From sequence record PX880099.1: 64,000 nucleotides of DNA; one strand, written 5' to 3'. The stretch is from a phage. The translations under genes were made by a program, and so were the position numbers. Below are positions 47,027 to 49,396 of this stretch, one piece after another. How positions within the stretch are numbered: position 1 is the first letter of the stretch; every line of letters starts with the position of its first letter. The notes beneath the pieces are model-generated. The model searched no databases. It had not been told where the DNA came from and worked only from the letters and a program-made list of their open reading frames with translations.

Positions 47027-47986
47027 TTAGATTCCAATAATAGTTGCTGCTCGTTTATCCTTGGATCTGGTGTTTGCTCTACTACGTGACAAACCTCCGC
47101 AAGATTCACAACGAATGATATCGAAAGAACTTACCGCAGTGTGGTATTGTTTACCAGTAACAACGTGAACGTGATCACTGCCACAACGAGAACAACGGAC
47201 CTTCTCATCTGGGTAATAAGCGGATAAGTTAGGATGCTGTGGAATCCACGGAAGGATTTTCATATACAAATCACGGAGTGAAACAACATCGCCATCATTG
47301 TAAATCTGCATACGTTCAAAAGCATCACGATCACCTTCACAACATGCTTTCCATAAAGGGAACCCCTCGTTATCCAGTTTTTCACTTTCTGTTTCGAAAT
47401 ATGCTCCCATTTCTTTAAGGGAGTTGGAAGGAAGTGCAAATTGTTTCTTAGCTGCCTTCAATGTATCAACAACTACATAATTAGAAGGAGGAGCCATATC
47501 GTGATATGCAAATCGTTGGTTAATGTATGCACGGTCAAACTTATACCCGTTGTGTGCCACAACTACATCTGCCTCATTCAGAAGGTTCCAAAGATCTTGG
47601 CAAAGCTCCCAATCATCTGTATGATCGATATCGAAAAGAGGATAAGAAGATAAGTTCTTACCTTCTACTTCACCTGTATACAAATCAGCAGAAGAGTAAG
47701 ATAACAAATAACCCCTACGAATTACCTGGTCTGGAGAAATGAAGGCTTTGAATCGACGGAAAGTATATGCAATCTCTGGTGCAGTTTCAACATCAATAAT
47801 TTTAATAACTGGTTGTTTCTTTTTAACTGGCTCTTGTTTACTTGCACCGAAACGTGCAAGGAAATCATTTACTGTGCTTTTTCTTGTTGGACTACCTAAA
47901 ACAATTGCTGCAATATTGCGAGAAGACATACCCTCTGCACTCATACTAAGGATATCTGCTTTCTGCTCTTCTGTTAATCTGCTCAC
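47027..47986 (-). CDS. DEDD-type 3'-5' exonuclease with N-terminal HTH-like region and C-terminal Cys cluster
   Basis: IIDVETAP (Exo I), VVAHNGYKFD (Exo II); RCSRCGS...CESCGG. Confidence 0.55.
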   Translation of the reverse strand: MSRLTEEQKADILSMSAEGMSSRNIAAIVLGSPTRKSTVNDFLARFGASKQEPVKKKQPVIKIIDVETAPEIAYTFRRFKAFISPDQVIRRGYLLSYSSADLYTGEVEGKNLSSYPLFDIDHTDDWELCQDLWNLLNEADVVVAHNGYKFDRAYINQRFAYHDMAPPSNYVVVDTLKAAKKQFALPSNSLKEMGAYFETESEKLDNEGFPLWKACCEGDRDAFERMQIYNDGDVVSLRDLYMKILPWIPQHPNLSAYYPDEKVRCSRCGSDHVHVVTGKQYHTAVSSFDIIRCESCGGLSRSRANTRSKDKRAATIIGI

Positions 47987-49101
47987 TCTGCCTCCTGTTG
48001 TGAGATGTATGACTGAAGCATACTCTCAAATGTTGTATCGTCATTATCCCAGCGTTTCATATATACCAACTGGAAAATTGTTTCTATCCATTCATCTGTT
48101 GTCATATGGACTTCTTCTCCATCCCAAGAAGTAAAATTAACACCATCTGGGAACCACGAGTAGTAAGTATCTTTAACTGTTTGGAAAAGCTCTGCTTGAG
48201 TTTTACAAGCTGAAAGAAGATTAAAACAAGTAATATCTCCAAACTTAATATCAAAATCTTGATAAGGTCGGATACTATCTGTTTTATCTCCCATTAGCAT
48301 CTGATAGGCTAACCAATAACTTCCCCAACCTTTAACTTCTTTCTTTTTACCTTTATCTACGATCCATATGTCGCCAATAGACTCGTCAATAAGAATTATA
48401 TCTGGATTTTTAAATACTCCATCCTCTTTGTAGAAATTAAAAAGGATACTAGGAGTATGTAAACTATCTTTATCTATAGACACTACGATATAAGAAAATT
48501 TACCCGTCCTTTTATAATCTTTATAACCTTGGAAACCATACTTCTCTAACTCATCGTCAGCCTCTATTACAGTAACAACATCACCATTGTGGAACTCCAC
48601 AAGATAATCTTTGGTTTCTGAAAGCTGAAGTGGTTTGATATCTAATCGTTCAGATTTATATTCTACAGGCATTTTGAAGGCGTGTCTGAAAGTTTTTCCT
48701 ACGCCAATAACTCCGCAATATTTTTCTAAACGTAGATGTTTTAGAATACCTAAGACTTTTGTTTTAGCTGCTTGGAAGGTGTGTCCGATATCTTCTGGCG
48801 GGTATTGCTTATCAATGATTTCGAACTCTTCCTTTGTGAAGGGACGTTTGTTTTTGGAGGCTCTTTCTGCATTTGTATCTCCTAGCCAACCTCCAATTTT
48901 AGTCTTGCTTTTACCCCAAAACTCTGTCTTATTTTTAAATTCCTTTTGAGCACCTGAAGGGATGTGCTTCGCAATGATTGTTCTTTTCTCTAATGCAGAC
49001 GCTGCTTGGAAAGCAATCTGATCATAATCAATTGCAGCTATTGTTTCTTCGTTGACATATAAATGAAGATCTTCAGGTTTAATTAAAATATAACCGCTAA
49101 T
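47983..49101 (-). CDS. T4 RNase H-like 5'-3' exonuclease / flap endonuclease (putative); start codon uncertain (possibly AUU)
   Basis: IAAIDYDQIAF, IEADDE, LIDESIGD and MLMGDKTDS resemble T4 RNase H acidic motifs; frame is open 143 codons upstream of the first ATG (48672) with no ATG/GTG/TTG; ATT at 49101 sits 5 nt after AGGGGGG. Confidence 0.45.
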   Translation of the reverse strand: MSGYILIKPEDLHLYVNEETIAAIDYDQIAFQAASALEKRTIIAKHIPSGAQKEFKNKTEFWGKSKTKIGGWLGDTNAERASKNKRPFTKEEFEIIDKQYPPEDIGHTFQAAKTKVLGILKHLRLEKYCGVIGVGKTFRHAFKMPVEYKSERLDIKPLQLSETKDYLVEFHNGDVVTVIEADDELEKYGFQGYKDYKRTGKFSYIVVSIDKDSLHTPSILFNFYKEDGVFKNPDIILIDESIGDIWIVDKGKKKEVKGWGSYWLAYQMLMGDKTDSIRPYQDFDIKFGDITCFNLLSACKTQAELFQTVKDTYYSWFPDGVNFTSWDGEEVHMTTDEWIETIFQLVYMKRWDNDDTTFESMLQSYISQQEAE

Positions 49102-49114
49102 ATTTCCCCCCTAA

Positions 49115-49324
49115 TTATTCATCGTCATCCTCTGTTGAGAATGTTTTAGTATACGGACATTGACGACTTTTCGGGATTGCTATAACTTCATCTTGGTTAG
49201 CGTTAGAATAGTAGCAATATTTTGTGTTGCCATTAACTTCAGAATCAGACAAGATTAAAGTAATTTGACCTGCTGCTACTGTGAAACTAAAAGCTAAAAG
49301 AACGACTGTCAGAATCTTTTTCAT
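49115..49324 (-). CDS. small secreted protein (signal peptide)
   Basis: MKKILTVVLLAFSFTVAAGQ. Confidence 0.5.
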   Translation of the reverse strand: MKKILTVVLLAFSFTVAAGQITLILSDSEVNGNTKYCYYSNANQDEVIAIPKSRQCPYTKTFSTEDDDE

Positions 49325-49396
49325 AACGCCTCCTAAAAAGCCTACCTCATTAAGTAGGTAGGCATAATATCATAACTAATCCCGCAAGTCAAGAAC

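Follow-up and report, generated by a model that had tools for sequence, protein, structure and literature searches.

The stretch of DNA analyzed here, which we call the window, is a 64,000-nucleotide phage sequence (record PX880099.1) that tblastn against phage genomes places in a phAPEC8-like phage (Phapecoctavirus, Stephanstirmvirinae). We focused on a gene for a predicted nuclease of the FEN / 5′-3′ exonuclease superfamily, which lies on the minus strand, as do all features described below. Its frame is open from 49110 to the TGA at 47985-47983, and the first in-frame ATG, GTG, or TTG is the ATG at 48670-48672 (Met144), from which most database annotations begin the protein. As the original prediction, made from the letters of the window, had pointed out, the program-made list of open reading frames (ORFs) gives only the C-terminal 229 amino acids. 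We propose that translation starts 143 codons earlier, at an ATT (AUU in the mRNA) at 49099-49101 behind a strong Shine-Dalgarno (SD) sequence, yielding a full-length, 372-residue nuclease, and comparison of related sequences leads us to assign this a probability of about 0.82. The resulting coding sequence (CDS; 47983-49101, 372 codons plus TGA) is supported by its translation, a match to a PHROG family, an AlphaFold2 model, fold matches, and the pattern of substitutions.

The nuclease frame is shut three codons before the ATT by an in-frame TAG (49111-49113), after which it reads GGG GGA AAT ATT AGC GGT TAT ATT TTA ATT AAA CCT. The ATT lies 4-5 nucleotides (nt) 3′ of the sequence AGGGGGG (49106-49112), an SD with a length-polymorphic G run that is AGGAGG or GGAGG at the same site in relatives, and 13 nt 3′ of the TAA (49117-49115) of an upstream 69-amino-acid ORF, so the strong SD and the close upstream stop that had been described are indeed there. 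The run without ATG, GTG, or TTG is also as described, 143 codons past the ATT, or 146 past the upstream stop. Given a frequency of 5.2% for these three codons in the long ORFs of the window, 146 codons free of them would be expected by chance with P ~4e-4, and among the window's ORFs of at least 120 codons, only the nuclease gene has such a leader. No purine-rich SD was found within 20 nt before the ATG at 48672. Two later in-frame ATT codons, at 49089 and 49083, were discarded as starts due to their distance from the SD and the conserved SGY codons that precede them. The predicted RNA fold of the start region was not better than that of shuffled sequences (z −1.65), which is not significant, and therefore we do not propose an RNA structural switch.

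A gene without a recognizable start could be an artefact or in decay, with the start lost by a sequencing or assembly error or the gene a pseudogene in this isolate, and the reported length of a homopolymer G run just upstream does vary. However, the same 372-codon frame is found in 65 independently sequenced GenBank phage genomes with at least 99% amino-acid identity, which indicates that the missing start is not a sequencing error; no strain variation supplying an upstream ATG or GTG, a possibility the original prediction had left room for, was seen among them. Forty records among the matches listed are 100% identical over the 372 residues, including the start Ile codon, and across all 65 records, identity in the 90-nt start region is 97.8-100%. 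In addition, the feature is common to uncultivated relatives down to ~50% identity, and the gene has no frame disruptions and is under purifying selection over its whole length, so we consider the chance of an artefact or pseudogene to be negligible. Genomes labelled "Campylobacter phage B15," "Klebsiella phage ZCKP1," and "Acinetobacter phage vB_AbaM_ABPW7" (H5, H6, and H20) also carry a 100% identical gene; for a coliphage genus, these host assignments seem questionable.

The only common difference in the start region among the 65 records concerns how many G the run in the SD contains, with 5 G in most of them and 6 G in the window and in 3 of the 65; the BI-EHEC record aligns over 91 bases to our 90-base start-region query. 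These differences may reflect real slippage or homopolymer sequencing noise. In the 5-G variants, the upstream ORF is in frame with that of the nuclease and one TAA lies between them, and a single stop likewise separates them in the KP2025-like group. With a slippery G run between the two ORFs, a fusion protein has to be considered, in which ribosomes would cross the TAA/TAG and the G run by stop readthrough or a programmed frameshift, and one gene-caller output from KP2025-like contigs (P0005, 444 amino acids, equivalent to window 47983-49324) does join them. We dismissed this output as evidence for a fusion, as it was obtained by reading TAG as Gln and is apparently an artefact triggered by the missing canonical start. 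The frame of the upstream ORF relative to the nuclease is 0, +1, or −1 among relatives, and the two are out of frame in the window; two in-frame stops intervene in four relatives (L015, L039, L040, and L042), and another (L033) has a different upstream gene altogether. Moreover, the signal-peptide-like segment of the upstream protein would export a DNA nuclease, and overall a fusion seems highly improbable.

That the 143 codons before Met144 are translated is indicated, first, by codon alignments with 10 relatives. Differences in codons 2-143 are mostly at third positions, as in the C-terminal 229 codons (34/24/83 at positions 1/2/3 versus Tr1 and 34/18/65 versus L014), and amino-acid conservation in this region is 60-100%. 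Other phage groups have full-length homologues, ~360-380 amino acids long, with N-termini that align to this region. AlphaFold2, run with a 45-sequence alignment, predicted one compact domain over the 372 residues (predicted local distance difference test 96.1; predicted template modeling score 0.89), in which the core strands 16-25, 39-46, 93-100, and 127-137 are all N-terminal to Met144. The strand β1 ends with Asp25 (codon 49027-49029, in the motif IAAID), an acidic residue that is invariant in the 45 homologues. The invariant Asp25, the coding-type substitutions, and the core strands suggest that residues 1-143 are needed, and on this comparative evidence we conclude that the N-terminal 143 codons are coding.

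It could still be argued that the only product is the 229-amino-acid C-terminal protein from the ATG at 48672 and that the upstream codons are an untranslated remnant, as this ATG is the start picked by gene callers and most GenBank records, and protein databases contain a 229-amino-acid cluster (P0019, P0029). Such a protein would have to be translated from an ATG without an SD, and according to the model and the alignment, it would lack Asp25, the four core strands, and with them half of the central sheet. It would also leave the coding-type substitutions and the conservation of the upstream codons unaccounted for, and in relatives the first canonical start is found at scattered, non-homologous sites anywhere from codon 17 to codon 201, while full-length homologues of ~370 amino acids are usual in other phages. 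We therefore give this alternative very little credit.

The protein matches PHROG 107, annotated as "exonuclease," with an E-value of 1.4e-55 over residues 10-367. The 372-amino-acid protein reached no threshold in Pfam or NCBIfam, including PF02739 and PF01367, a single-sequence search of the PDB returned nothing, and neither did a phmmer search of the PDB with a distant homologue (P0082); a profile search of the PDB gave only a marginal match to Taq polymerase (E 0.07). PF02739 was reached by 16 of the 45 aligned homologues, with a best E-value of 1.7e-6. Since direct sequence searches were weak or empty, the family placement rests on the predicted structure, the fold search, the motifs, and hhalign and transitive homology. 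The predicted structure has a PIN-like α/β core built around a central parallel sheet, and all 13 Foldseek matches of the model at E ≤ 1e-3 belong to the 5′ nuclease family.

The motifs quoted in the original prediction, IAAIDYDQIAF (residues 21-31), EADDE (180-184), DESIGD (239-244), and GDKTDS (271-276), are all present. The core catalytic motifs, recognized from invariant columns and profile alignments, are Y148-K149..R152, E180-A-D182-D183, D210-K-D212, and G271-D272..D275 (48277-48660), where D25, E180, D182, D183, D210, D212, D272, and D275, as well as Y148 and K149, are invariant in the 45 homologues and R152 is nearly so. In profile comparisons, they align to YKGNR, EADD, DGD, and GDLGD of T5 D15, and equivalents align in T4 RNase H (including YKKNR) and the Taq 5′ nuclease. 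We take the carboxylates that bind the two catalytic metals to be D26, E128, D130, D153, D155, D201, and D204 in T5, with D19 in T4, and the basic residues of the T5 helical arch to be Y82-K83 and R86. Alignments by hhalign to T5 D15 and T4 RNase H cover the nuclease only from approximately residue 105. The N-terminal motif, which had been expected to be that of a flap nuclease, agrees with this family in a short local alignment only, where IAAID25YDQIAF pairs with ICLID19FSQIAL of T4 RNase H (LIDFSQIAL, Asp19) and LMIVD26GTNL of T5 (MIVDGTNL, Asp26); a lack of homology of the 143 codons to FEN N-termini, the other way in which the prediction could have failed, was thus not observed.

Taken together, the sequence comparisons and the structural model indicate that the nuclease is a divergent member of the FEN / 5′-3′ exonuclease superfamily, and among the members, T4 RNase H is not a closer relative than the others. 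Compared with T5 D15, T4 RNase H, ExoIX, and the 5′-3′ exonuclease domain of Pol I (239-305 amino acids), with which it shares 12-20% identity, it is ~80-130 residues longer, with an insertion (residues ~40-100) past the β1/α1 unit and extra C-terminal elements. T5 D15 and T4 rnh are also annotated with ordinary start codons, unlike the nuclease described here. Its role, judging from family membership, is presumably the removal of Okazaki primers and 5′ flaps.

To follow the start codon beyond near-identical phages, start regions were gathered from GenBank phages, IMG/VR, metagenomes, and assemblies and compared in register. In a clade of 27 distinct sequences with 49-100% protein identity to the nuclease, the codon homologous to the ATT at 49101 is ATT, ATC, ATA, or CTG in 27 of 27 and ATG, GTG, or TTG in none. 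ATT is found in phAPEC8-like phages, Tr1, Justusliebigvirus, L017-24, and L033; ATC in KP2025, L014-16, and L038-42; ATA in L025, L034, L035, L043, and L044; and CTG in L026. These are exactly the four near-cognate codons that best initiate after the canonical three (bioRxiv 10.1101/063800). A GGAGG-like SD is placed 4-5 nt before the near-cognate codon in all 27. In L015, L039, L040, and L042, an in-frame TAA stands directly before the ATC, so no start further upstream in the same frame is possible. Synonymous changes begin right past the first codon (AGC GGT TAT ATT TTA versus AGC GGG TAC ATT TTA or GGC TAT ATT CTA), which means that translation spans those codons. The proposal that the ATT is the only plausible initiator is thus borne out by the relatives. 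In the metagenomic sequences L017-L022 and L024 (~1492-1545), we also noticed an out-of-frame ATG directly after the SD (GGAGGATGTTATT), which begins an ORF of 17 codons across the ATT start and lies too close to the SD for normal initiation.

More distant homologues (30-42% identity) serve as an outgroup and have canonical starts at about the same position, with ATG in CR3, L027, L029, L031, and PAK_P3, GTG in GAP31 and ICP1, and TTG in CM1 (rV5-like). Examples among their proteins begin with M-GYP or V-GYP, in register with I-SGY in the window nuclease. A whole viral clade thus keeps a near-cognate start on an essential-looking replication nuclease, while its sister clades use ATG, GTG, or TTG.

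Several observations weigh against initiation at this codon or against the meaning we attach to it. Because ATT, ATC, and ATA all encode Ile and a switch to CTG is conservative, an internal codon would vary alike, and what rules out an internal codon is solely the in-frame stops located 0-4 codons upstream. Since few independent third-position changes have occurred, the missing ATG is a statistically weak sign of selection against a strong start, and independent start-codon changes are too few for any statistical claim of selection. In the more distant L033-L035, an ATG nine codons downstream, which is the start chosen by gene callers, could be an alternative start; it has no SD, and both the peptide before it (x-[ST]-x-K-F-x-T-I-S) and the layout of SD and ATT or ATA are kept. 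The protein falls below the thresholds of Pfam and NCBIfam and its PDB matches are weak, leaving structure, motifs, and transitive homology to carry the family assignment. Finally, our literature searches found no proteomic or ribosome-profiling data on the N-terminus of the nuclease.

The upstream gene offers a variant of our proposal, compatible with it, in which it is mainly ribosomes leaving the 69-amino-acid ORF, and not free 30S subunits, that start at the AUU, and upstream translation sets the level of the nuclease. With a TAA just 13 nt before the ATT, translational coupling is possible, and in every relative the stop of the upstream ORF is 0-16 nt before the first codon, often overlapping the SD (TAGGAGG). 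Reinitiation is aided by SD sequences and a short intercistronic distance, but IF3 (initiation factor 3) inhibits it and it also requires initiator tRNA, so the handicap of a non-canonical codon would remain (PMC2268962). The SD is also strong enough for de novo initiation, and in L033 a DNA methyltransferase gene takes the place of the small ORF yet the ATT start is retained. We hold it to be a possibility with the odds against it that reinitiation sets the level, although it is plausible as a contributor, and sequence alone does not separate it from de novo initiation.

In databases, the AUU start is mostly missed, and the RefSeq entry of phAPEC8 and most other records annotate just the 229-amino-acid C-terminal part, to which some add a spurious 40-amino-acid ORF in another frame. 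In phAPEC8 (NC_020079.1), a 40-amino-acid "hypothetical protein," G377_gp266, is annotated in another frame at 2730-2852 (window 48750-48872), inside the N-terminal region of the nuclease, and was most likely called to fill what looked like a gap. Justusliebigvirus records start the nuclease at an internal GTG, and those of Tr1 and KP2025 at internal ATGs. ESCO13 (KX552041.2 / NC_047770.1) has a CDS, ESCO13_00118, that runs from exactly this ATT to the same stop and is accompanied by a ribosome-binding site feature; no other CDS from this ATT was found among the records whose annotation was inspected. Among the records listed for the start region, just the two of ESCO13 have the nuclease CDS covering it, and the further records inspected cut the gene short at a canonical start downstream. 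The ESCO13 paper is silent on the ATT start (PMC5374246), and literature searches on phAPEC8 and ESCO13 start codons and on phage exonucleases with ATT starts returned no description of this gene. Hence, the ATT start was already known as an ESCO13 annotation, whereas the clade-wide near-cognate pattern appears to be unreported in the searchable literature. The locus exposes a systematic annotation error, as most Phapecoctavirus, Justusliebigvirus, and related GenBank/RefSeq records list a truncated nuclease of 229-344 amino acids, and it has produced other forms of mis-annotation, namely spurious filler ORFs and the false fusion caused by a TAG read as sense.

The surrounding genes fit the proposed function. 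The module order is ligase, MazG-like pyrophosphohydrolase, RdgC-like protein, nuclease, and DnaQ-like exonuclease, with the first two identities taken from the phAPEC8 annotation, and these neighbors are consistent with a role in replication or recombination. The small upstream ORF (49115-49324) belongs to phrog_4641 (7e-27), a family of unknown function, and its product has a signal-peptide-like segment at the N-terminus (MKKILTVVLLAFSFTVAAG). The close relatives inspected (ESCO13, Tr1, ESCO9, JohannJBalmer, and KP2025) have a homologous small ORF ahead of the nuclease gene, and the KP2025 record calls it a "pili assembly chaperone." Downstream, the GTG start of the gene for the DnaQ-like 3′-5′ exonuclease (47984-47986, seen in the sequence and in the ORF list) overlaps the nuclease stop as GTGA and has a GGAGG 5 nt before it, and translational coupling of the two genes is probable. 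In the interval from the RdgC-like gene to the 69-amino-acid ORF, consensus matches reveal a near-consensus, σ70-like candidate promoter (TTGACT-17-TATTAT with TG, 49392-49364) directly adjoining a terminator-like hairpin and T-run (GCCTACCT...AGGTAGGC TTTTT); the two together span 49340-49392. This candidate promoter is likely the start of a transcription unit that includes the nuclease gene.

According to the mechanism we propose, the strong SD (AGGGGG), 4-5 nt upstream, would position the 30S subunit at the AUU, which initiator tRNA carrying N-formylmethionine (fMet) would decode as a near-cognate codon, so that the protein would begin with fMet. Ribosomes terminating at the upstream ORF, 13 nt before the AUU, may add to initiation by coupling. 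Initiation at AUU, AUC, AUA, and CUG in E. coli reaches ~1-2% of the AUG level, with a range of 0.02-3% (bioRxiv 10.1101/063800), IF3 inhibits non-canonical starts (PMC2268962), and their use varies with temperature, nutrients, and ppGpp (guanosine tetraphosphate) (PMC5499595). Since near-cognate codons initiate weakly and IF3 discriminates against them, the level of the nuclease would be low and IF3-sensitive. The AUU start would thus keep the nuclease scarce despite the strong SD and the early-type promoter and could tie its synthesis to IF3 activity and the state of the ribosomes. IF3-dependent regulation is a reasonable expectation from the biology of AUU initiation, and we infer that low dosage is a selected property of this start. 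An enzyme able to damage DNA in excess would then likely be kept at a low and possibly condition-dependent level.

The persistence of the near-cognate codon over ~50% protein divergence suggests that the weak start was selected rather than tolerated. We can go further, although only tentatively and with less confidence than doubt, and suggest that it was selected across the Stephanstirmvirinae-like clade as a device that reports the state of host IF3 and ribosomes and limits a potentially genome-damaging nuclease to catalytic amounts. If so, nuclease synthesis would read out growth rate, temperature, and ppGpp and would be a phage counterpart of the control of infC and pcnB. Few non-canonical starts have good evidence, and the nuclease adds a phage case with unusually clean comparative support. 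With a tractable host and phages and a single-base change sufficing, it also provides an easily testable system to study why weak starts persist, be it the dosage of a toxic nuclease or IF3-linked regulation.

The only confirmed AUU genes in E. coli are infC and pcnB (bioRxiv 10.1101/063800), and the phage nuclease shares features with both. Like the nuclease gene, infC has a conserved AUU behind a functional SD and thus a codon of the class that IF3 disfavors, which makes infC output depend on IF3 activity. However, infC is autoregulatory, as its product is the discriminator itself, whereas IF3 dependence of the phage nuclease would read the state of the host without feedback. The second gene, pcnB, encodes poly(A) polymerase I, an enzyme harmful in excess whose dosage is limited by an inefficient AUU start because of its toxicity. 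Similar to the nuclease gene and its homologues, pcnB has AUU in some lineages and canonical starts in others, but in the phages the near-cognate state is held across a viral clade, cycling among AUU, AUC, AUA, and CUG.

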